IMG/VR virus record: IMGVR_UViG_3300033273_000658
Location: 64,001 to 128,000 of that record
Source of the DNA: a virus
Reading direction: 5' to 3' (one strand)
Length of the DNA stretch: 64,000 bases
Part shown: positions 38 to 42,598 of the stretch, piece by piece
Position numbering within the stretch: position 1 is the stretch's first letter
Layout: each line of letters starts with the position of its first letter
Notes under the pieces: generated by a model
What the model was told of the DNA's origin: nothing
The model's input: the letters and a program-made list of their open reading frames with translations, nothing else
The model's database searches: none
Program-made: the position numbers and the translations under genes

Positions 38-1036
38 ATGTTCAACCCCAATCATAAATTAATACAAAAAATAAAAGAGAAAGGAGGGTTTATTAACTCT
101 CATGCCCATTTTGATCGGGCTTATACCGTGACTGAAGATAATATGGAAAAGGTGGTTAATTACCACCTTTTTGATAAATGGCAGTTCGTTGATAAGTTCA
201 AGAAGAATGCCGAAGTCTCAATTTATATTCACAACATGATGGCAGCAATAAATCAACAAATCAAGTATGGAGTTGTTGGTGCTTTGACATTTGTTGACAT
301 TGATAGTGTATGTGGTTTTAAAGCAGTAGAAGCAGCTCAGATAGTAAAAAAAGAAGCGAAAGCCAAAGGTTTTGAGCTTAAAATTTGTTCCCAAGCGTTG
401 AAAGGTGTCTTGGCACCTAAAGAAAATAAATTACTTAAAAAAGCCTTAGATTTGGGGTATTTGGATGCTATTGGTGGTCTTCCAAGAGCAGATGAAGGAA
501 AAGCACAAGCACACTTAGATCAAATTCTTTTTTTAGGCAAAGAATATGGAAAGAGAGTTCATGTACACGTTGATCAACTTAATGATTCTCTAGAAAAAGA
601 AACCGAAATGCTTGCTTTGAGAACAATGCATTGGGGCATGGAAGGTAGAGTGACCGCTGTTCACGGTATTTCTATTGCAGCACATCCAAAAGAATACAGA
701 GAGCGTGTTTATGGTTTGGCTCGTGATGCGGCCCTTTCTTTTGTCTCATGCCCAACAGCTTGGATTGACTCTCGCAGAAAAGAGTGGTTAACTCCAACAC
801 ATAACTCCATCACACCTGTTGAAGAAATGATAAAACATGGCCTGACAGTTGCTATTGGCTCAGATAACATCCAAGATGTTTATAAACCATTCTCAGATGG
901 AAACATGTACACAGAGCTTAAATTTTTGCTTGAATGTTTGCATTTGTACGACATTGATACCCTTGTTGACATCGCAACCAAAAACGGGAGACTAGTTATT
1001 GGTATGGAGGATAATAATGAAGGAGCCAAAATTTAA
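38..1036 (+). CDS. Metal-dependent amidohydrolase, cytosine-deaminase (CodA)-like
   Basis: GGFINSHAHFD (HxH metal motif), HVHVDQ, VTAVHG and GSDNI..P match the amidohydrolase TIM-barrel pattern; RBS GAGG upstream. Confidence 0.8.
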   Translation: MFNPNHKLIQKIKEKGGFINSHAHFDRAYTVTEDNMEKVVNYHLFDKWQFVDKFKKNAEVSIYIHNMMAAINQQIKYGVVGALTFVDIDSVCGFKAVEAAQIVKKEAKAKGFELKICSQALKGVLAPKENKLLKKALDLGYLDAIGGLPRADEGKAQAHLDQILFLGKEYGKRVHVHVDQLNDSLEKETEMLALRTMHWGMEGRVTAVHGISIAAHPKEYRERVYGLARDAALSFVSCPTAWIDSRRKEWLTPTHNSITPVEEMIKHGLTVAIGSDNIQDVYKPFSDGNMYTELKFLLECLHLYDIDTLVDIATKNGRLVIGMEDNNEGAKI

Positions 1037-1280
1037 AGTTGGAGACCTTGTATTCTATCAAGCATCTGAAATAAATAAGTATGCTAATGGCGAGAGACAG
1101 ATGGGAATAGTACTTAAAGTTACCCCGGAAGTTTCACCACTGTTTGAGGATCTACCTGATGCCCATATGTGGGCGTATGAGTTTAAAGTTAAATGGATTG
1201 AAACAGGATACACTTCAACGCTTCACGGATTTAATTTAAAAAAAATTGAAATTCCACTTGACAAAGAAGAAGAAACATGA
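1017..1280 (+). CDS. Small KOW/SH3-like hypothetical protein (FKVGDLV family)
   Basis: Start moved to ATG 1017 after GGAGG; KVGDLV...GIV...VKW pattern. Confidence 0.6.
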   Translation: MKEPKFKVGDLVFYQASEINKYANGERQMGIVLKVTPEVSPLFEDLPDAHMWAYEFKVKWIETGYTSTLHGFNLKKIEIPLDKEEET

Positions 1281-1286
1281 TATACT
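1258..1286 (+). promoter_or_regulatory. sigma70-type promoter upstream of small ORF and tmRNA
   Basis: TTGACA-17nt-TATACT with TG extended -10. Confidence 0.8.
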
Positions 1287-1303
1287 ATAATAGAGGAGGA
1301 AAC

Positions 1304-1498
1304 ATGGTAGGAAGATTAGTAAAATGGATTCACGATGAGATGCCAACAAATCTTTGTGTAATAATTGATGATTTAGGGTACAAAGAAGATCATATAGTTT
1401 TATCCGAAGAAGAAGAAAATGAAATGCTTTTTCTTTGTTATGACTTTGTAACAAACGAACAATTTTATGCTTTGGAGAATGAACTCCAGTTTATTTAG
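1304..1498 (+). CDS. Hypothetical protein; the last base of its stop codon is the first G of tmRNA
   Basis: ATG after GAGGAGG; TAG at 1496-1498. Confidence 0.6.
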   Translation: MVGRLVKWIHDEMPTNLCVIIDDLGYKEDHIVLSEEEENEMLFLCYDFVTNEQFYALENELQFI

Positions 1499-1883
1499 GG
1501 GGCGCAATGGTTTCGACAGGGTAGACATGAAGGACAAGTGCAAGTAGGTAAGAACGACCTTAACAGTTTAAAAAAATTATAATTGCCAATAATAACAATT
1601 ATTTCGAAGTAGCTCAAGCAGCTTAATCGGGTGGTTTCTTTATACCATCAGTCCAAATAAAGATAGTCAGATGGGTGAGACGATAAAGTTATAAGGGAGT
1701 CTAGCGGACTTTGCCGTACCTAAAATGGTTACCCTGTTGGTAGCAGGTGGAACTCTAAGGCTACACAAGAGTTGGTTGGAAAAAAGGTAGCTACTTTGTT
1801 TGTTTAGAGAAACAAAATAAACTTGTGAACGACTTTAATTTATGATGCGCTGGACAGCAGTTCAATTCTGCTCGCCTCCACCA
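1498..1883 (+). ncRNA. ssrA: tmRNA, tag peptide ANNNNYFEVAQAA* (1585-1626)
   Basis: 5' GGGGGCG..GGTTTCGAC; 3' T-arm GCAGTTCAATTCTGC then CGCCTCC-A-CCA; acceptor stem has the G3.U alanine identity pair; resume codon GCC after ATAATT; tag ends in AA. Confidence 0.95.
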
Positions 1884-1933
1884 CTTTTTATTTTAAAATA
1901 ACTATTTATTGTAAATTTTATGGAGATTTAAAA

Positions 1934-2308
1934 ATGAAACTAACAACCCAAAAACTTAAGCAACTCATTAAAGAAGAGCTGAGCAACATAAAAGAATCAG
2001 AGGTTTATGAATTCCCAGATGTTAGTGGCTCAGCGCTGAACCCTGATAACATTGCAAAATACAGAGACTCGATTAAGCACCGCAAACCTCTTAGTGAAGA
2101 ACACATAGCTGACTTTCAACAATTTAAACAAATGTTGAAAACCCTTATAAAAGATAAATACGGTAGAAATCAAAATGAAATACACCACTATACACAAATC
2201 CAGAAATTTATTGCAGGCGTAGAGATGCAACTTGACTATCTTTTCTATGACCTTAAAAAGATAATGGAAAATCCATTGGATTATGAACATCTTGATGATG
2301 AAGGTTAA
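1934..2308 (+). CDS. Hypothetical protein with MKLTTQKLKQLIKEEL leader (putative virion-internal protein)
   Basis: Leader shared with several late-zone ORFs; ACTATTTA motif at 1901. Confidence 0.6.
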   Translation: MKLTTQKLKQLIKEELSNIKESEVYEFPDVSGSALNPDNIAKYRDSIKHRKPLSEEHIADFQQFKQMLKTLIKDKYGRNQNEIHHYTQIQKFIAGVEMQLDYLFYDLKKIMENPLDYEHLDDEG

Positions 2309-2318
2309 CTAAAAATAT

Positions 2319-2347
2319 TTGACAAACTCCTGAGAACATGTTATACT
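2319..2347 (+). promoter_or_regulatory. sigma70-type promoter
   Basis: TTGACA-17-TATACT with TG extended -10. Confidence 0.8.
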
Positions 2348-2369
2348 ATAATATAACTTAGGAGAAAAT

Positions 2370-2831
2370 ATGAATAGATTAGTACCTCCATCAATATGGA
2401 GTAATAAAACAGTTTTAGTGTCCGGTGGGTTTGATCCCATTCATGCCGGACATGTTGCTATGATAAGAGATGCAGCAAAGCACGGAGATGTGATTGTTGT
2501 TGCGAACTCTGACGAATGGCTTATGCGAAAGAAAGGGTTTGTGTTTATGCCCTTTGAAGAACGCCGAGACATTCTTAAGGAGATTAAAGGTGTCATCATT
2601 GTAGCAGCTGTCGATGACTCAGACGGAACGGTTTGTGATGCCCTTCGAAAAATTCGCCCAGACTATTTTGCTAATGGCGGAGACAGAGGAAAGAACAACA
2701 CACCGGAACAAGATGTCTGTGAAGAACTTGGCATCGAAATGCTTTGGGGAGTCGGTGGAGATTACAAACGAAACTCTTCATCTGACCTTGCAAAGAACTT
2801 GGTAGAAAATTATCCAAAGGAGGAAAAGTGA
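2370..2831 (+). CDS. HxGH cytidylyl/adenylyltransferase (TagD/RfaE-II/RibL-like)
   Basis: SGGFDPIHAGH, VVANSD, ERRDIL, FANGGDR, SSS motifs. Confidence 0.85.
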   Translation: MNRLVPPSIWSNKTVLVSGGFDPIHAGHVAMIRDAAKHGDVIVVANSDEWLMRKKGFVFMPFEERRDILKEIKGVIIVAAVDDSDGTVCDALRKIRPDYFANGGDRGKNNTPEQDVCEELGIEMLWGVGGDYKRNSSSDLAKNLVENYPKEEK

Positions 2832-2925
2832 ACGAACAATGGATTTTTTATTTAGATGCTCTCATCCCAATGGTAGGGTTAGTGTGTTTTTATTATTGCT
2901 TACATAATATAGAATAGGAGAACAA

Positions 2926-3174
2926 ATGAAAGAATATTTGATTTGGTATCGACTTCCCGGAGATACCATTGATAGAGTCCGTGGAACCGCTCGCAACTGG
3001 CAAAGAGCCGAAAGAATGGCTGAGAATCTTCATCTTCGTTTAACAAGCAATGATATTGATGTTGAAGCTGTTGGTGTCAAAAGTGGCTTCCATGGAGAGC
3101 TATATGAAGATGAAACACTACATATGAGATGGAATGTTATACCACCAGAACCAGAGCAACAGGAGGAACAATGA
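2926..3174 (+). CDS. Hypothetical protein
   Basis: ORF with AGGAG RBS. Confidence 0.55.
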   Translation: MKEYLIWYRLPGDTIDRVRGTARNWQRAERMAENLHLRLTSNDIDVEAVGVKSGFHGELYEDETLHMRWNVIPPEPEQQEEQ

Positions 3175-4088
3175 GATTTGCTTTATTAACAACACTTTTA
3201 TCATGCGGCGGAGACATTCTTATCTCCGCAAACTATGATGAAAAAACAAACGATACAAATAATGCTATCGTTGTTGAGGACACTGTATCCCCAAGTCCAA
3301 CAACGGACACCCCAAGCGAGCCATCAAGTAGCCCCACAAGTGAACCAGAGACTCAAATGACCGAACTATCCGTTGGTCTTGCAACAATTCATTTCCGACA
3401 GATTTCATGTCCAGCATGTGTTGGGGCTTATGGAGAGTTTGATATTTCAGCAGAACTAAAGATGCATCAACCAACATCCGGAGACTACTTTCAATACATG
3501 ACTCCCGTTGGTACATGTACAACTAATTTAATTGAGACCTATGTGAGCTCACAACCAGTTCAAGCGACACAACCCGCTATGTTTAACAACATTAGTCTCA
3601 ATCCATCAGGACAAGGACAGTGGACAAATAACTACCTCTACGAGTATCAAATAGAGAGACAAACACCTCACACAATTGTTACTGAAAACGGCACGATAAT
3701 CGATGCGTTTACGACCGTAGAGGGCTTTGATGACATTCAGCCCTACACCTTATTGTGGGTTGATCCTTCCTACGCTTTTGACGCTGTAATCTCCAAGAAT
3801 GGCACAACTTTTACATGGTATCCTGTGTTACCTCTTGATTACTTTGAGGTTCTTATTGCGGTCTATTCACCCGATGGTTCTCAACTTCTTGGAGCAGTTA
3901 GTTGCATGGAGACAGACACAGGTTACATGTGGGTTCCCGGAAACTATTTCCAAACATTTCCAACTTGGTCTCTTGCTGCCGTTCATCTTATCCGACACAG
4001 GATTGGAAGACAGATAGCACCAGAGTTTAATGGCTACATTGATTCTCACATGATTTGGGAAGTTGTTGGAACTGGACACATAGAATAG
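3171..4088 (+). CDS. Putative lipoprotein with Ser/Pro/Thr linker
   Basis: Start moved to ATG 3171 after AGGAGG; MRFALLTTLLSC lipobox-like; PSEPSSSPTSEP linker. Confidence 0.65.
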   Translation: MRFALLTTLLSCGGDILISANYDEKTNDTNNAIVVEDTVSPSPTTDTPSEPSSSPTSEPETQMTELSVGLATIHFRQISCPACVGAYGEFDISAELKMHQPTSGDYFQYMTPVGTCTTNLIETYVSSQPVQATQPAMFNNISLNPSGQGQWTNNYLYEYQIERQTPHTIVTENGTIIDAFTTVEGFDDIQPYTLLWVDPSYAFDAVISKNGTTFTWYPVLPLDYFEVLIAVYSPDGSQLLGAVSCMETDTGYMWVPGNYFQTFPTWSLAAVHLIRHRIGRQIAPEFNGYIDSHMIWEVVGTGHIE

Positions 4089-18405: not shown

Positions 18406-18580
18406 GCTTGTGTATTTTGAAGACCTTGATGGTCAAATTTACCTGTCTGTTATTCTTGCTGATGGGGTTTCTGGATACGGTGGAGATACGAGAATAATTT
18501 ATGTTATCTACTCAATCGCAAATCGATCCACTTGGTTGGCTTATGAGTCTGAGCTGACTCTAGCCAAAAACTTTACATAA
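18386..18580 (+). CDS. Small KOW/SH3-like protein
   Basis: FGTGELV..ESEL pattern. Confidence 0.5.
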   Translation: MQFGTGELVYFEDLDGQIYLSVILADGVSGYGGDTRIIYVIYSIANRSTWLAYESELTLAKNFT

Positions 18581-18592
18581 CTTTTTTTATCT

Positions 18593-18962
18593 AAGTTACA
18601 TAAAATTTTAACAAACTTCATAAAACATGTCAAACTTTTTATGTAACTTTCTTAAAATTGTCTCTTGCAAGAATCATGCCAAAAATGTTTTACATAACTC
18701 AGACACTGAAATCGTGGCTGCAACTACCTTTAAGGTTGTTTTTGGATCATTGCAAGAACCATGCCAAACTTTTTTTACATAACTTTGAACCATTTTAAGC
18801 AAGTTACATAAAATTTTAACAAACTTCATAAAATGACTTGCAAGAATCGTGCCAATTTTTATTTACATAACTCAGGCATCGAAAACAGCTCTACGAGCTT
18901 CCAAAGGCCAGATCGCTTAACTTTACTATGAAGTTACATAAAATTTTAACAAACTTCATAAA
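18593..18962. repeat. Three exact 32-bp direct repeats AAGTTACATAAAATTTTAACAAACTTCATAAA
   Basis: Copies at 18593, 18801 and 18931; partial inverted and tandem copies nearby. Confidence 0.9.
18665..18872 (-). promoter_or_regulatory. Island A: three sigma54 -24/-12 consensus sites with linked AGTTATGTAA motif
   Basis: Reverse complement of TGGCAY-N5-TTGCAA at 18665, 18750 and 18838. Confidence 0.8.
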
Positions 18963-19057
18963 CTTTAACAAACTTCATAAAAAAAGTGAAGAAAAAGTTT
19001 GACAAGGTTATTTTGCTGGGTTAATGAATATTCTGCAACACAAAACATGGAGACAAC

Positions 19058-35981: not shown

Positions 35982-36045
35982 GCTACTCCCCTCTACCGTA
36001 CTACCCCCCTACCCTACCCCCCTACCTAACCGACCGGAGATTTAC

Positions 36046-36288
36046 ATGAACACTCAATCCACCCTCACACAAATTATCGATAGAACCCTTGCACTCATTG
36101 ACAACGGACTTGAACGCTCCGTAGGAGACATGCGCCTTATGGACGCTCTTGAGCTTGTGGGTGTCCTCATGGACATACGTGAACGTCAGCTCGTATACGA
36201 TAATGAGCGCAGTGTTTCCGAGCCTATTCCATCATGCAGAAAGGCATGTATGAAAAAGCCCAAATGCAAAGGTACAGATGGGCTATAA
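36046..36288 (+). CDS. Hypothetical protein
   Basis: ATG after GGAG, downstream of a C-rich tract. Confidence 0.5.
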   Translation: MNTQSTLTQIIDRTLALIDNGLERSVGDMRLMDALELVGVLMDIRERQLVYDNERSVSEPIPSCRKACMKKPKCKGTDGL

Positions 36289-36492
36289 AACGGAGGAAAT
36301 AAACTTTATGAAAGTATTGTTTTGTGGCGTGTTATGGATGTATTGAAATTTTCCTTTATTGTCGGGAGTATCTGAGCTAAAACAGCTCCTAAGCACACCA
36401 CCCACTACTAAGTAGTACCCCCAAAACTAAAACGCCTTTTTTCCCCGAAACTTTTGAAATAGGGGAATCTTTTTTTTGCCCAAAATCTAATT

Positions 36493-36665
36493 GAAAATGA
36501 GAATCATTATCAAAATGCGCCTTGCAATTTCCGTGCCAAAACTTCTTTACATAACTCCGAGCCGATTGTCCTTGCAATTTCCGTGCCAAAACTTCTTTAC
36601 ATAACTCCGAGATCACCCGAAAATACCCCTTGCAAAAAGCGTGCCAAAAAAATTTCACATAACTC
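36493..36665 (-). promoter_or_regulatory. Island C: Fur box plus three sigma54 composite sites (42-bp exact direct repeat, period 50)
   Basis: GAAAATGAGAATCATTATC at 36493; sigma54 sites at 36522, 36572, 36630. Confidence 0.8.
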
Positions 36666-36816
36666 AAAACAGCTTTCCAGATAGCTGGGATTAAGGTGGC
36701 TCCCGTAGGGAGATAAAAAAAATGAAAAAAAAGTTTGACACCAGAAACACCATCGGATAGAAGTAAGTATCGGCTTTTTTCGATGGTCGAATTTTCACAT
36801 CCCTTTCGGAGCTATC

Positions 36817-37116
36817 ATGCCCTACTACGCTTTCTTCCACTGTTCCCACTGCAATTGCCTCCTCCCAGAACATGATCAATCCTTTGGATTCTACCGAGAC
36901 GATAACGACAAAGCAGTTTGTTTACGTTGCTTCAGCTCTCTTGATGGAGAACTACCTGTCGATGTACAACAAGCATTTGAGGCTATCATAGAGCGTATGG
37001 ATGAGTATCACGAGACCTTTCGTGGAGCTATGGTTCATGTGTCCTATGAGTATGGTACAAATGAGACGCACCACCAACAGCTTTGGGCTATGTACCGAGA
37101 TCTATACAAGTCCTAA
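36817..37116 (+). CDS. Zn-finger hypothetical protein
   Basis: CSHC...CLRC; promoter TTGACA at 36735. Confidence 0.55.
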   Translation: MPYYAFFHCSHCNCLLPEHDQSFGFYRDDNDKAVCLRCFSSLDGELPVDVQQAFEAIIERMDEYHETFRGAMVHVSYEYGTNETHHQQLWAMYRDLYKS

Positions 37117-37463
37117 AAACCGGCCTTTGAAGGCCCTTCCTTTAACATCCAACCCCTAGCGAGATAAACTCATGATGTACAATAATCACTTCAATCCGTT
37201 CCCCTATCTAATCATTGCAATCTATACCTCCCTAATCTTCATTGGCCTTGCAGGGTTCTATCAGAACATAGCACACCCAAAACCCTTGCCAAAGGTAGAG
37301 ATTCCCCACAATGAAGTCGAAATCACATTTATTTCAAAATAATTCTTGACACCACCAAAATAACCCAGTATACTGTATAGAGACGATAACGATTGAGATA
37401 ATGAGTTTCAAGACTGCTGAATCGATCCGAAGTCTCTCCAACCCCTCCCAAATAGGAAACCCC

Positions 37464-37808
37464 ATGCCACGTTACTTTTCTTGCTCTTGCCACCTCAACA
37501 CCGAAACCACTTGCCGACACGATAGAGATCCTTTCAATGCTCTCCGTATGAGAACCGACTGGACTGTAGCTGACTTCGATGGTCTCAGCTCAAAAGAAGT
37601 CCAAGCTATCAATGAGTCCAATGCACGATACAACCAGCTTGCAGAAGAGATTGAGGAGATGAACATCTCCATAGCTATGCGCCAGATGGACGATGGAACC
37701 TACAACAAAAAACCACGTAGAACCAAGCGTATCAAACGCGTCTCTCTCTCAGAAGAACAACAAGCCGAGATTATCGCAGATCTCAAAGAGGACGGCTACG
37801 AAGTGTAG
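37464..37808 (+). CDS. Hypothetical protein
   Basis: Promoter TTGACA-17-TATACT at 37346; AGGA RBS. Confidence 0.55.
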   Translation: MPRYFSCSCHLNTETTCRHDRDPFNALRMRTDWTVADFDGLSSKEVQAINESNARYNQLAEEIEEMNISIAMRQMDDGTYNKKPRRTKRIKRVSLSEEQQAEIIADLKEDGYEV

Positions 37809-37873
37809 CCAACTCTTCTACCCTACTACATACCACCCTACTACCCTACTACCCCACCCCCAAGGACATACCC

Positions 37874-38263
37874 ATGAGCACATCTAACGCTAACAACGAG
37901 ACCACTATTAACCCCTCTTCTCTTCCAACTGCTGAATACCTCTATGCTCGCAACCCTGCTCTCCGAGACTCCAAAAACACCATCTCATACACGCAGTTCG
38001 ATAAAATCGTGCGCTCAATAGAGCCAAGCGCATACCAGCAATTACGCCTCATAGAGCTATGTGAGATGTACAACGCTCTCACACGTGAGCAACAGGTAGC
38101 ACAGGATGAGCCACACTTAAGCGCAGAAGATGACTTTGCAATCTTTACAGATCAAAACGGGTTTACTATCATTCAGCATGAACCAACCTTTATCAAGTTT
38201 AAGCTTATGGGCTATGAGAGTGTCGAAATGAAACGGCCGAGAAGACTCTCAATCATACTCTAA
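37874..38263 (+). CDS. Hypothetical protein
   Basis: AAGGA RBS after a C-rich tract. Confidence 0.55.
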   Translation: MSTSNANNETTINPSSLPTAEYLYARNPALRDSKNTISYTQFDKIVRSIEPSAYQQLRLIELCEMYNALTREQQVAQDEPHLSAEDDFAIFTDQNGFTIIQHEPTFIKFKLMGYESVEMKRPRRLSIIL

Positions 38264-38297
38264 GTTTTTGGAGTTTGCCAGAAGAACCATTTCATTT

Positions 38298-38498
38298 TGA
38301 GAATGGTTCTCATTTTTTTAGCTCGGTCATTTTGAGAATCATTCTCAATTTCAGTTTTTGGCATGAGCTTTGCAATATTGCAAGAAGTGTGCCAAACTTT
38401 TTTGACATAACTCAGACCGTTTTTCTCTTGCAAAAACCGTGCCAAAAAAAATTGTCATAACTCAAATGGCCTAGCTGGCCATTTGAGAATCATTCTCA
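38298..38498. promoter_or_regulatory. Island D: three Fur-type 7-1-7 boxes plus three sigma54 sites (two convergent)
   Basis: TGAGAATGGTTCTCA at 38298, TGAGAATCATTCTCA at 38333 and 38484; sigma54 + at 38359, - at 38378, - at 38428; 11-bp inverted repeat 38461-38487. Confidence 0.8.
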
Positions 38499-38668
38499 TT
38501 TAGAAAAAAATGAAAAAAAGTGAAAAAAAAGTTTGACATAGCAAAATGAGTCGGGTATTATAGAGTATGCCTTTTTTGAGGCTGTCGCTCTTTTACATCC
38601 CCAATAACAAATCTTCCTCTCCGTGGCTGTTCATGGAGAGAGACAAACTTCTTTATATGGAGCCAACC

Positions 38669-39094
38669 ATGGCAACAATCATTCTCAATTCTCTTAATCT
38701 CCTCACAAAAATCATCAATCAAGGTGCTTTTGCAACTGACGCTATCGCAGAAGTCCAGAACACCTATGGTCTTGATCAAGAGCAGGTCGATACCGTACTC
38801 ATGGAGTACAACATCAATCAGATGCGTTCCCAGCGTTCTCAGCTCACACTGACTGTCTGCTTAAAGAACGCATCCAGCGTAGAGATTCCTCTTACTCAGG
38901 CCCAGTTCGATCTGCTCATGGCGCAGTTCAATACTGGGGATGCAAAGGATCCCTATGGGAATCTCATTGTGAGAAGTGTAGAGATCACTGACAACAAGCG
39001 TATCCGTCAGCATGGTTATGCACCCGATGGAAACACAGGTTACAACTGGGGTTATGCATCCACAGGACGCTTGTCACATCCCAGTGATGAATAA
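38669..39094 (+). CDS. Hypothetical protein
   Basis: ATG after GGAG; promoter TTGACA-17-TATTAT at 38533. Confidence 0.55.
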   Translation: MATIILNSLNLLTKIINQGAFATDAIAEVQNTYGLDQEQVDTVLMEYNINQMRSQRSQLTLTVCLKNASSVEIPLTQAQFDLLMAQFNTGDAKDPYGNLIVRSVEITDNKRIRQHGYAPDGNTGYNWGYASTGRLSHPSDE

Positions 39095-39330
39095 ACATCC
39101 ACCCAATCACCCAAAACAGGGGGCGCAAGCCCCCAAGGAGCTTGTATGAGCCGTTTAATGAATCTTGCACACCTTGGAAATCCACTTGTAAAATGCACAA
39201 AATGTGGATTCCAATACCCCAAACTTGGAAAGTGGTCAATTGCCACCCATCAATGTACAGGAAAGAAAAAATGAGACTAGATCACTTCGTCATCAAACCA
39301 CCCACAACCAACCTTTATAGAGGAGCCACC

Positions 39331-39708
39331 ATGGCCATTTCAAACACACCCAAAACCAACACCCAAACCATCACAACAGGAGCCACCATGGCACACTATC
39401 CACAAAACACCCCATCTGTAACCCAGTCACGAGGCTTTGAGTCGTCACACATGACTTGGGTTCGCACACAACAAACTGGATCGGATCTTGTATACGGTCG
39501 TATTCGTGACACCGGAGCCAACTACATTGTAGAGGGTTATCGATCTGGTGTATGGGTTGCGATCCCTTGCAAGAATCTCCCAAGTGCACAGCTTCTTCTT
39601 GGTGGTGTCATGCCAAAGGCAACACACAAACGAGAAAAGGCGCACTATGACTTTCAGAAAGCCCATGTAGAGCTATACGCATGGTGGAAAGACCACAGCA
39701 TTGTATAA
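39331..39708 (+). CDS. Hypothetical protein with two in-frame AGGAGCCACCATG starts (39331, 39388)
   Basis: Duplicated initiation region. Confidence 0.5.
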   Translation: MAISNTPKTNTQTITTGATMAHYPQNTPSVTQSRGFESSHMTWVRTQQTGSDLVYGRIRDTGANYIVEGYRSGVWVAIPCKNLPSAQLLLGGVMPKATHKREKAHYDFQKAHVELYAWWKDHSIV

Positions 39709-39783
39709 CTCTTCCAGTGCTCTAGCCGTGGCATAAAACGGCCTACTACCCCACCCCCGTACCCCCACAAACAGGAGACATCC

Positions 39784-40143
39784 ATGTCACACGAGACACC
39801 CGAAACCAACCCCACAACCCCACAAAACACTACCACCAAGAAAGTTCTTTACATTGCTCATTTATGCCCATACGACATGGCTCAGTATGGATATGGAACC
39901 ACACATCGCTTTTCAGATCGGGAGGAGTTTGAGGCTTTCCGAGCCTCCAAAGGCTCTCGTTGTGATGACTACAGTCGTTGGATCTACCATGTGCGCACCA
40001 TCTTTAATCGAATCGAAGAAGGATACGATGTAGACTCGTGGTATTTCGACTATGGTGTCAATAATGACGGTTCAGTTTCAAAAACCCCATACGGACATTG
40101 GAACCAGTACCATGCAGATTTCAAGAGCTTTCCCGAAATCTAG
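39784..40143 (+). CDS. Hypothetical protein
   Basis: AGGAG RBS after a C-rich tract. Confidence 0.55.
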   Translation: MSHETPETNPTTPQNTTTKKVLYIAHLCPYDMAQYGYGTTHRFSDREEFEAFRASKGSRCDDYSRWIYHVRTIFNRIEEGYDVDSWYFDYGVNNDGSVSKTPYGHWNQYHADFKSFPEI

Positions 40144-40170
40144 TCACGTCAAGTCTTGACGTAACAACAT

Positions 40171-40197
40171 GAGCCGAAATTTTCGGCTCTTTTTTTT
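40171..40197 (+). terminator. Rho-independent terminator
   Basis: GAGCCGAAA/TTTCGGCTC hairpin then T8. Confidence 0.75.
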
Positions 40198-40211
40198 GAG
40201 CTTGATCATTT

Positions 40212-40459
40212 TGAGAATCATTCTCAATTTCTGTTTTAACAAATTTCATAAAATTTTATGCAAGTTAGATAAAAATCCTCTTGCAATAACCGTGCCAAAC
40301 TTTCTTTACGTAACTCCAAAAATCTTGCATGCAAGAAGTGTGCCAAAAAAACTTTACGTAACTCAAACCGGATAGCTGAAAATCCTCTTGCAAGAAGTGT
40401 GCCAAACTTTCTTTACGTAACTCAAAACACATAGCTGAGCATTTTTGAAAATCTTCTCA
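40212..40459 (-). promoter_or_regulatory. Island E: Fur box plus three sigma54 composite sites
   Basis: TGAGAATCATTCTCA at 40212; sigma54 sites at 40281, 40329, 40388, each with TTACGTAACT. Confidence 0.8.
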
Positions 40460-40652
40460 TTTAGAGCCGGTCAAAAAATGTCCTCAAAAAAAAGAAAAAA
40501 AATGTTTGCACATCGAAAAAACATGTTATATTAATTTTGTGGCGAGGTCATAACCTCAAAACTTTTTTCGCTCTTTGTCAGTTCCAATAATAATCCTGTT
40601 CTTTTCGTGGGTGCTAGTGCCACGAATCAAACCATCACAACAGGAGCCACCC

Positions 40653-41078
40653 ATGGCCTTATTAATCTTTCTACTCGTATTCGGTTATGTCGTTTGCGAC
40701 ATTGCCAAGAACATCAAAAACAATCGCAAATAGGAGATAAACCATGCTTATTATCGCATCTGCATACATTTCACTGATCGGGGGCTTTGGCCTCTACCAC
40801 TTCCTCAAACTCATTTTCAATCAATAGGAGACACCATGTCAGAAACTCACGTCCTTTTCAGTTTATTCCTCACCATCTCAGTTATGCTTTCCGGCTTTGT
40901 CTGGATTGTATGCGAAGAGTCTACACCATCTGAAACAGACGATTGGGAACTTATTCCAATCGCTCAAAAGATGGTCACAATCGGCCAGAAGCTTTCCGGC
41001 TTATACCTTTCTCTATCGATCCCCATCATGTTTTTTAACATGGTGTACATCATTACATTCTGCACCCACCAACCTTAG
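40653..41078 (+). CDS. Three small membrane proteins: 40653-40733, 40744-40827, 40836-41078
   Basis: Each has an AGGAG RBS and 1-2 hydrophobic helices. Confidence 0.55.
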
Positions 41079-41087
41079 GAGACAACC

Positions 41088-41447
41088 ATGAACACATTCA
41101 CAACCAACCAGCCCACAACAGGAAACAACACCATGAACCAAGACAACACAACCCACGTAGAACACAGCGCCACCAACACTATCCCATCCGTATATGATGA
41201 TACAAACCACAAGTATGACACACTTGAAACCACGCACCTCCCAAACCCCTCGGAATACCGTTCTGAGGTGGCAGTGATGTACGACTTCTTATGTGCTATC
41301 TCGGATTCGTGGGTACACTGCGCGAATACTCAGTACATCATTGACCATGCTCGTAACGAGCTTGTGCGTGGTGGTCGTACTCCATTCTACCATGAGTGCA
41401 TTAAGGAGCTTGTGAAGCTCTACAATGCACCACAAGGGGGTGAGTAA
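41088..41447 (+). CDS. Hypothetical protein
   Basis: AGGAGACAACCATG start. Confidence 0.55.
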   Translation: MNTFTTNQPTTGNNTMNQDNTTHVEHSATNTIPSVYDDTNHKYDTLETTHLPNPSEYRSEVAVMYDFLCAISDSWVHCANTQYIIDHARNELVRGGRTPFYHECIKELVKLYNAPQGGE

Positions 41448-41610
41448 TGACGAGTATCATCACCACCACAGGGCTTGCATTGCTTGCCCTTGTGGGCTTT
41501 GTGGGTGAGGTATTCGCCCCATGGAATGACATCCCCCGAAGCCTATCGGCTCGGCTCCTCTTGACGGCTGGCCTGTTTGGGCTGGCCTTGCGCCTGATGG
41601 GGTGGTTCTG

Positions 41611-41898
41611 ATGTTTCTGAGAGTCACCCAAACCCACACCAATCGCCCAAGCACGTGCAACGCACGTGCATGCGATTGCAAGCCCATCCCCTCCGGTACC
41701 CCGGTGGTGTGGACGGTGTCTACCTATCGGGGGCGTACCCTCAGCCGTGTGTGGCACCCTGAGTGCTTTGAGAGAGCCACGGCATACGCTCCCTACTATC
41801 ATAGACTCAAAGCGATTAGGGAGGGTAAAGACATCCTCCCGTTACCATTGTCGGCCTATTGTCCTGAGACGGGAAAGGTAATAGGCTACGAGCGATAG
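41611..41898 (+). CDS. Putative Zn-finger protein
   Basis: C....C.C.PI..G...WHPEC. Confidence 0.45.
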   Translation: MFLRVTQTHTNRPSTCNARACDCKPIPSGTPVVWTVSTYRGRTLSRVWHPECFERATAYAPYYHRLKAIREGKDILPLPLSAYCPETGKVIGYER

Positions 41899-41947
41899 AC
41901 CACCAGCCGATCGAATGATCGGCATTCTCTTTCCCCCACACCATAAT

Positions 41948-41966
41948 GATAATGAGAATCATTATC
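41948..41966. promoter_or_regulatory. Fur box (18/19 match to GATAATGATAATCATTATC)
   Basis: GATAATGAGAATCATTATC, with an extra CATAAT hexamer on the 5' side. Confidence 0.8.
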
Positions 41967-41998
41967 AATACCAGCCCGATTGGATGGGGCAAGACTTT

Positions 41999-42079
41999 CA
42001 AGTAATTGATTTCAATTATGGTATAGCGCAAACCGAAATCAATTATGGTTTTGAAATCGAAATCAATTATGGTTTGCGC
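41999..42079. repeat. TCAATTATGGT direct repeats x3, an IHF-consensus site and an inverted repeat
   Basis: Copies at 42012, 42039, 42063; reverse complement AATCAATTACTTG at 41999-42011; GCGCAAACC/GGTTTGCGC. Confidence 0.7.
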
Positions 42080-42274
42080 AACCCCCTCCTCCTACTTCCC
42101 CTTGGTTGGAGCGTTGCGAAATAAGTACTTGAAAGTCTTGACACGTCAAATCGGCGCAGATACATCCTCGCTACACACAGAAATTTCCCAGATTTGAAAA
42201 AAATTAAAAAACATAAAACTATTTAAGGTGTAAAAAAATATAGAAAAAAAATTTCTAGATTTAAGGAGCATAAA

Positions 42275-42598
42275 ATGAAATTAACAACAACACAAATAAG
42301 AAAGCTTATAAAAGAAGAGCTGCGTAAAATTCTAAAAGAAATGGATTATTCAGAAAGCATGAGTCTTGATTTGGGGTATTTGCAAAACTTAGCCAATCAA
42401 GTTAGAGAAAAAACTATTTCAAACAATGACATGCAAGAATTAATCAAAGCTGTTCAATTGATTGGAAATGAGCTTTTCGCTCAAAAATTAAATCCCAATG
42501 GGGAACACGCGATGTTTTATTATAAAACAGTTGGATTGGTAGATCCTGATGTTGACATGTATGAATTTAGCCCGGAAGAAGAGCCAGAATTTTATTAA
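42275..42598 (+). CDS. Protein with MKLTTTQIRKLIKEEL leader
   Basis: Leader motif; ACTATTTA at 42218. Confidence 0.65.
   Translation: MKLTTTQIRKLIKEELRKILKEMDYSESMSLDLGYLQNLANQVREKTISNNDMQELIKAVQLIGNELFAQKLNPNGEHAMFYYKTVGLVDPDVDMYEFSPEEEPEFY

Follow-up and report, generated by a model that had tools for sequence, protein, structure and literature searches.

In Shiga-toxin prophages, the iron regulator Fur acts at the stx1 promoter, and DtxR acts at the tox gene of corynephages. Multicopy Fur boxes derepress the Fur regulon, which is the principle of the Fur titration assay (FURTA), and both the overlapping-dimer and the hexamer models of Fur boxes lead one to expect free triplets between the TGA and TCA elements. 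T4-type phages reportedly carry PeSL (promoter-early stem-loop) repeats, which Arbiol et al. are said to have described in 2010 as an early promoter combined with a stem-loop. LexA boxes occur in phage GIL01 (PMC4551915), and CtrA boxes occur in alphaproteobacterial phages, where deferral of lytic development has been proposed (PMC9437464). Here, we analyzed a 64,000-nucleotide (nt) stretch of viral DNA, called the window below (bases 64001-128000 of the 141-kb IMG/VR viral record IMGVR_UViG_3300033273_000658, estimated to be 78% complete), which carries seven Fur-type boxes, most of them inside gene-free islands.

On balance, we favor the reading that these palindromes are genuine operators of a host Fur-family protein, acting in cis within early-region control islands and gating them in an iron-dependent manner; the phage probably reads the iron state of its host rather than soaking up Fur. 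As in the stx1-Fur, tox-DtxR, GIL01-LexA, and CtrA cases, a host transcription factor would be borrowed as a sensor of host physiology. In the stx1-Fur and tox-DtxR systems, the target is one cargo toxin gene of a temperate phage; the boxes described here are several, lie in early islands of a T4-like clade, and are coupled to sigma54-type sites. Like the PeSL repeats, the islands are repeated regulatory cassettes that, in a T4-like genome, border modules of small early genes, with a unit number that varies among relatives; the Fur boxes and the opposed sigma54-type units are what they add to the PeSL arrangement. We found no published description of Fur boxes in the early regions of lytic phages in the literature searched, and what appears to be new here, judging from sequence, is that Fur boxes are coupled to sigma54-type promoters and that a marine clade has conserved this coupling.

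The seven boxes, labeled S1 to S7, are the following.

S1, 36492-36512: 21-bp double Fur box TGA-AAA-TGA-GAA-TCA-TTA-TCA; its 19-mer at 36493 scores 17/19 to the classical box.
S2, 38298-38312: variant box TGAGAATGGTTCTCA, conserved as TGATAATGGTTCTCA in the relative L470.
S3, 38333-38347: perfect 7-1-7 box, exact 15-mer TGAGAATCATTCTCA.
S4, 38484-38498: perfect 7-1-7 box, the same exact 15-mer.
S5, 40212-40226: perfect 7-1-7 box, the same exact 15-mer.
S6, 40446-40459: variant, an S4-type box minus one base of the right half (TGAAAATC-TTCTCA); intact as TGAGAACCATTCTCA in L470 and L407.
S7, 41947-41967: 21-bp double Fur box TGA-TAA-TGA-GAA-TCA-TTA-TCA; its 19-mer at 41948 scores 18/19 to the classical box.

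All seven sites are intergenic. The 7-1-7 / 19-bp inverted repeat TGAnAATnATTnTCA is thus represented three times by the exact 15-mer, twice by a 21-bp double box, and twice by a variant; of the variants, S6 has probably decayed through the loss of one base. Within the window, the 15-mer with up to 3 mismatches gave 16 strand hits against 5.1 expected (16 was reached in 0/100 shuffles), the classical 19-mer gave 5 matches against 0.05 expected, and the 21-mer pattern TGA-N3-TGA-N3-TCA-N3-TCA gave 5 matches against 0.4 expected. Across the whole 141-kb record, every 19-mer match with up to 3 mismatches fell within window positions 36490-41951. The flanks that S3 shares with S5 and S4 with S6 indicate duplicated island segments and not independent origins. 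A preliminary description of this DNA had listed these sites (the three copies of the perfect palindrome, the two variants, and the two 19-mers with their scores of 17/19 and 18/19), and all of them were recovered, far above chance, as was their intergenic placement. Its remark that no iron-related gene is adjacent also stands, since the ten neighboring open reading frames (ORFs) have no Pfam or PHROG match above the cut-off. That most boxes avoid a -35/-10 region is right for sigma70 promoters, S3, S5, and S7 covering no recognized core promoter at all; S1, however, lies across the start predicted for a leftward promoter of sigma54 type.

The boxes hold fixed places in a recurring layout made of the following elements.

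Island A, 36290-36816: gene-free.
Island A array, 36523-36646, minus strand: three leftward sigma54-type units TGGCAC-N5-TTGCA, each with CATAACTC 10 nt beyond.
Equivalent early promoter of sigma70 type, 36735-36763: weak -10.
Island B, 38264-38668: gene-free.
Island B array, 38359-38444, minus strand: two leftward units (38379-38394 and 38429-38444) plus one rightward unit (38359-38374) facing them.
Island B sigma70-type early promoter, 38533-38561, plus strand: TTGACA at 38533, 17-nt spacer, TATTAT at 38556; behind an A-tract.
Island C, 40144-40650: gene-free.
Island C array, 40282-40404, minus strand: three leftward sigma54-type units.
Equivalent early promoter of sigma70 type, 40505-40532.
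Fourth spacer, 41899-42274: 3' of islands A to C.

Each island presents, in order, an upstream terminator, a box (S1, S3, or S5), two to three array units, a second box (S4 or S6, in islands B and C only), an A-tract, and a sigma70-type early promoter; in island A, the scan called no terminator, and a weak hairpin with a U8 run stands in its place. The array unit is TTGCAA-N5-GTGCCAA-N10-CATAACTC, which on the minus strand reads as a perfect sigma54 -24/-12 promoter. The window contains the sigma54 consensus TGGCAY-N5-TTGCA 13 times without mismatch, where 0.06 occurrences are expected, and 12/13 point leftward, against the genes. The 21-mer of S1 lies 9 nt from the TTGCAA of the first unit; with the -12 C at 36524, the leftward start is predicted at about 36512, which is the first base of this 21-mer on the minus strand, so S1 occupies about +1 to +21 of the predicted leftmost leftward promoter. 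S3 lies about 14 nt past a terminator U-run and 11 nt upstream of the plus-strand sigma54-type site 38359-38374, and S5, a copy of the S3 segment, lies 14 nt past an intrinsic terminator (40171-40189 plus T8). S4 follows the last array unit by about 20 nt; relative to the start of the sigma70 early promoter in island B, its center is at about -77, with the A-tract between. S2 also supplies the 3' arm to a hairpin that resembles a terminator (38283-38310 plus U7, -11.2 kcal/mol, z -3.1) and closes the upstream operon, and S7 stands 24 nt past a terminator at 41906-41923.

Two further details of the islands may be recorded. At 38359-38394 in island B, the rightward TGGCAT-N5-TTGCA faces the first leftward site with the -12 elements 4 nt apart (TTGCA-ATAT-TGCAA), an arrangement kept in L470 and L407. 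A small hairpin, GCTCCC-GTA-GGGAG followed by ATAAAA, stands between the array and the early promoter in island A (window 36696-36712) and is conserved in islands of relatives (L006, 5325-5340 and 6905-6925).

Next, we looked into how boxes and arrays are arranged in relatives. Protein searches of IMG/VR for relatives of islands A to C returned one contig only, G001, which is about half complete and which carries Fur-like boxes to the left of the first array unit, as here, at two or three loci. A metagenome DNA scan with the composite sigma54-type pattern yielded 117 marine loci (485 kb in total), many of them closely related, so that counts overstate independence. Among these loci, 114/120 matches with up to 3 mismatches to the 19-mer adjoin arrays, almost all on the left side; most of the array-side matches are paired 6 nt apart, with the nearer one ending 7 to 8 nt from TTGCAA. 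Extra copies follow at steps of about 30 nt, so that some relatives carry three tandem boxes, and a few boxes lie 20 to 21 nt past the last unit, like S4. We scored 111 unique left flanks for the 12 positions of the TGA-N3-TGA-N3-TCA-N3-TCA phasing and found a bimodal distribution (40 flanks at 12/12, 5 at 11/12, and 57 at 7 or less), with a score of 11 reached in 0/20 shuffles of the flanks. The gap from the 21-mer to TTGCAA was 9 to 11 nt in 25/45 good boxes, and S1 follows this same arrangement. The triplets between TGA and TCA vary freely (TAA, TTT, ATT, AAA, GAA, and TTC), and the intervening positions 5, 6, 11, 16, and 17 are never G or C in the flanks of relatives. In L470 and L407, a box is present at each of the positions S1 to S6 although the number of array units varies, the S3 box differing by one 6-nt hexamer, and the S4 box is identical and placed the same in L470, L407, L442, and L370. 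Moreover, Fur-type islands stand behind at least three different gene families in the relatives.

The identity of the boxes can be read from bacteria. The Fur-box consensus of Xanthomonas campestris is AATGAgAATcATTctCATT (PMC1790865), and S3, S4, and S5 are identical to its core. In Enterococcus faecalis, iron-transporter boxes read TGAGAATGATTCTCA, TGAGAACGATTCTCA, and TGATAACGATTCTCA, and the transporters are derepressed in a fur mutant (PMC6056675). We scanned GTDB, one genome per species (596 Gb), for the exact 19-mer and obtained at least 120 loci against about 4 by chance, as estimated for a random 19-mer. The taxa among the matches listed include Beta- and Gammaproteobacteria (many SAR86, Massilia, Nitrosomonas, and Methylophilaceae), Firmicutes, Actinobacteria, Bacteroidota, and others. 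Flanking ORFs, defined as those starting within 250 nt of the exact 19-mer, numbered 80 among the matches listed, with TonB Plug (8), ZnuA-family (7), TonB barrel (6), FUR (4), iron-type solute-binding (4), and FTR1 (3) proteins; in SAR86 and an OM43-type genome, the 19-mer precedes TonB receptors, FTR1, and a Peripla_BP_2 protein. The presence of the 19-mer at metal-uptake genes of many phyla indicates that it is a working Fur-family operator across bacteria. Like the E. coli 19-bp Fur box GATAATGATAATCATTATC and the Bacillus 7-1-7 box TGATAATnATTATCA, the phage boxes share length, symmetry, and hexamer phasing, and the two boxes within S1 and within S7 are shifted by 6 nt against each other, the arrangement of the classical 19-mer. 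They differ from bacterial Fur boxes in lying on a lytic-type genome with no iron-related gene near and in being mostly off sigma70 core promoters, and their binding by Fur is predicted only. At the level of sequence, the literature consensus, the bacterial metal-uptake sites, and the hexamer phasing kept in relatives strongly support the classification of the palindromes as Fur-type boxes, in line with the type assigned to them in the preliminary description.

The same box recurs in unrelated viruses. In IMG/VR, the 16-mer TTGAGAATCATTCTCA occurs at no fewer than 118 loci, compared with 7 for the same letters reversed, an enrichment of at least 17-fold. Among the matches listed, 28 loci hold 2 to 7 boxes within a few kb, at guanine-plus-cytosine (GC) contents of 35 to 65%, and most of these boxes stand between genes and precede small phage genes. 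No protein family was common to all 28 multibox loci (the largest occurred in 5/28), and beyond a few distant matches they shared no proteins with the phage studied here. The 34 ORFs beside boxes in unrelated phages included no iron-related Pfam families, which indicates that these loci are not host iron genes misbinned as viral. The three whole records that were checked have all of their boxes within the first 1.7 to 3.2 kb of the contig, and Fur boxes may therefore mark terminal or early blocks in many phages. These results suggest, as a matter of sequence distribution, that an enriched and clustered box in unrelated viral contigs reflects a general link between Fur and lytic development.

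The terminal boxes of the three records, which are unrelated, span 57-3204 in G007 (L142), 1148-1711 in G008 (L208), and 45-2286 in G010 (L150). In G007, three copies of a paired-box cassette lie 1.4 to 1.7 kb apart.

This distribution bears on the possibility that the boxes are operators of a phage-encoded DNA-binding protein, such as a small early protein, with the likeness to Fur being coincidence or mimicry. The ten neighboring ORFs have no family, two of them carrying CxxC zinc-ribbon-like motifs; tandem palindromic operators are typical of phage repressors; and 22% of the genome is missing from the record. We nevertheless regard this explanation as unlikely, because the same 15- to 19-mer is clustered in unrelated viral contigs that have no common protein, because the 19-mer also stands at metal-uptake genes in many bacterial phyla, and because the variation of the boxes in relatives is limited to what the Fur hexamer model allows. 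An identical box in unrelated viruses without a shared protein is better explained by a conserved host factor than by many phage proteins. The preliminary description had named the operator of a phage-encoded repressor as what would speak against its reading; a FUR-family gene was found neither in this phage nor in the five other box-bearing phage records searched, six records in all, and no protein family was common to the 28 multibox loci, so that this objection gained no support.

A host factor could also be a Fur-family paralogue (Zur, Mur, or PerR), in which case the islands would sense zinc, manganese, or peroxide. What distinguishes Fur-family boxes from one another is known to be just one or two positions in each half-site, as in the Bacillus 7-1-7 boxes, and among the matches listed the ZnuA family provides 7/80 and the FUR family 4/80 of the neighbors of the exact 19-mer. 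Set against these counts, iron-specific neighbors dominate (TonB receptors, FTR1, FbpA-type, and Peripla_BP_2 proteins), the literature matches are Fur regulons, and PF01297, the ZnuA-type family, includes Fur-controlled Fe/Mn transporters. We judge a paralogue to be a rather improbable ligand.

In the cis-acting scheme that we prefer, iron-loaded host Fur dimers would bind the boxes. The core module would be the 21-bp double box placed 9 to 11 nt from the -12 element of the leftmost leftward unit, with Fur sitting on about +1 to +21. When iron is sufficient, the leftward promoter and the traffic of RNA polymerase across the operon boundary would be blocked, and when iron is scarce, they would be released. 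The remaining boxes would flank the array on both sides: one closely follows the upstream terminator, and the other stands some 20 nt after the last unit, at a position of about -77 relative to the sigma70 promoter. Jointly, the boxes would link transcription at the early-operon boundary to the iron status of the host. We infer the direction of this regulatory effect, as we do the activity of the sigma54-type sites as promoters. Because rpoN is present in 4/5 marine genomes bearing the exact box, the host could plausibly have Fur and sigma54 together.

Several observations weigh against this scheme. The tight promoter-start geometry is found only at S1 in this phage; S3 and S5 are separated from the closest leftward unit by 30 to 55 nt, and S7 adjoins no sigma54-type unit and has no counterpart at the homologous position in L431. 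No gene or known RNA was found downstream of the leftward promoters, among the ORFs of the window or by Rfam over 36000-42400, and the phage lacks an enhancer-binding activator, its best PF00158 match being a CobS/MoxR-like AAA protein below the cut-off; the activity of the leftward promoters is thus unproven, and they are putative only. The boxes of G001 are weaker and partly nonpalindromic, and the close relationship of many of the marine loci tempers their counts. Across unrelated phages, the distance from box to TTGAC shows no sharp preference. Finally, the Fur specificity of the host and the host sigma54 are assumed, and with ZnuA-family proteins as 7/80 of the bacterial neighbors, Fur is not separable from a Zur or Mur paralogue.

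The preliminary description had suggested that the boxes could be a sponge, part of multiregulator decoy islands on a replicating genome that would draw off host Fur (or Zur/PerR), so that metal uptake by the host is derepressed. Three perfect consensus palindromes, stronger than typical host operators, would suit such a role, as would the three tandem boxes at 30-nt steps in some relatives and the lack of any box beside an iron gene, and titration of Fur by multicopy boxes is well established from FURTA. FURTA, however, relies on hundreds of plasmid copies and has no positional requirement, whereas the phage boxes are few and locked in position: their distance is 9 to 11 nt to the -12 element or about 20 nt to the last array unit, or they come directly after terminators. 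A sponge could do without such constraints relative to sigma54-type elements, terminators, and promoters. Copies are also scarce, the genome having just seven boxes (the probably decayed S6 included) and the half-complete G001 two or three loci. Moreover, derepression would need host transcription to go on late in infection, and in iron-poor seawater the Fur regulon would presumably be derepressed already. The fixed spacing to the sigma54-type core, the fixed flank positions, and the few copies argue against titration and favor gating in cis, so that the decoy idea is redirected and a sponge appears very unlikely. The same description had offered iron gating of the early operons as its alternative; this lies closer to the evidence, with the difference that the gated element appears to be the leftward sigma54-type array and not the sigma70 early promoters.

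Least credible of all is a role without any protein ligand, in which the palindromes would be structural elements of the RNA or DNA (hairpins of terminators, processing sites, or PeSL-like hot spots of recombination): S2 does lie inside a good terminator hairpin and boxes do sit at the edges of duplicated cassettes, but the palindromes by themselves have weak folds (-4.4 and -5.2 kcal/mol), bacteria use the same sequence as an operator, and many relatives are nonpalindromic with the TGA/TCA phasing intact, which makes a hairpin impossible there and rules out a hairpin requirement.

Gating by host Fur in cis can be extended into a bolder proposal, which we put forward tentatively and consider possible but doubtful. 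In this marine T4-like clade, which would be an abundant one, host Fur would serve as an iron switch on arrays of antisense, leftward-firing sigma54 promoters at the edges of early operons, and starvation would unleash antisense or convergent transcription that slows or reprograms early development, an iron-sensing deferment of the lytic cycle; more broadly, lytic phages of many phyla would read iron via clustered boxes in early or terminal regions. Iron is limiting in much of the ocean, and little is established on whether and by what means lytic marine phages track the nutrition of their hosts. If true, a conserved, position-locked Fur operator in early control regions would be a concrete and testable iron sensor in a widespread phage clade.

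The phage itself is of T4 type, with portal, capsid, terminase, and sheath proteins of that kind, and nearly all genes of the 141-kb record are on the plus strand. Its portal protein has only distant T4-like kin (Flavobacterium phage immuto, 40% identity, and Microcystis phage Mel-JY01, 43%), and among INPHARED phages there was no BLAST match for the box region or for one large phage protein. The box region consists of small ORFan genes with higher GC content and negative GC skew, interrupted by the three gene-free islands. Rfam returned a single subthreshold chance match over 36000-42400. The phage also encodes a full-length transfer-messenger RNA (tmRNA) at window 1498-1883 on the plus strand (Rfam RF00023, 101.9 bits, E 1.5e-40), with the tag peptide ANNNNYFEVAQAA (ARAGORN); nucleotide similarity between it and five candidate marine host genomes was not found.

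Other arrays of the same kind carry other motifs. A sigma54-type array at 18.6 kb (window 18560-18990; also L010, L012, L024, L068, and L084) has AT-rich repeats, for example AAGTTACATAAAATTTTAACAAACTTCATAAAA and TAACAAnnTTGTTA, in place of Fur boxes in the same slot by the first unit, and a different factor may bind them. Since an AT-rich motif replaces the Fur box in these islands, the first-unit slot looks like an interchangeable operator position. We had entertained the idea that every phage lineage might have an operator of its own and therefore encode a repressor for it, and dropped it because the motifs other than Fur boxes come from another type of island in the same phage. At the sigma70-type early promoters of G001, a palindrome GGACA-N5-TGTCC stands just upstream of the -35, where this phage has its A-tract (L006 4010-4035, 5445-5475, 5860-5890, 7140-7200, and 7465-7505); it may be a second, lineage-specific operator.

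Two minor features lie at the borders of the region. Upstream of island A, a 12-codon ORF (window 36309-36347, plus strand) follows a strong ribosome-binding site, GGAGGAAATAAACTTT-ATG, with the product MKVLFCGVLWMY; its counterpart in a relative (L006 4974-5012) reads MKMFVGCALWMY, and it could be a tiny gene or a leader peptide. In the fourth spacer, three direct repeats of about 16 nt (GAAATCAATTATGGTT, about 42007-42074) lie inside a 14-bp inverted repeat (AAGACTTTCAAGTA at 41991-42004, with its complement at 42126-42139). The direct repeats of 41991-42139 look iteron-like, are conserved in L431, and lie at a GC-content boundary, and this repeat region could be an origin or a regulator-binding region.

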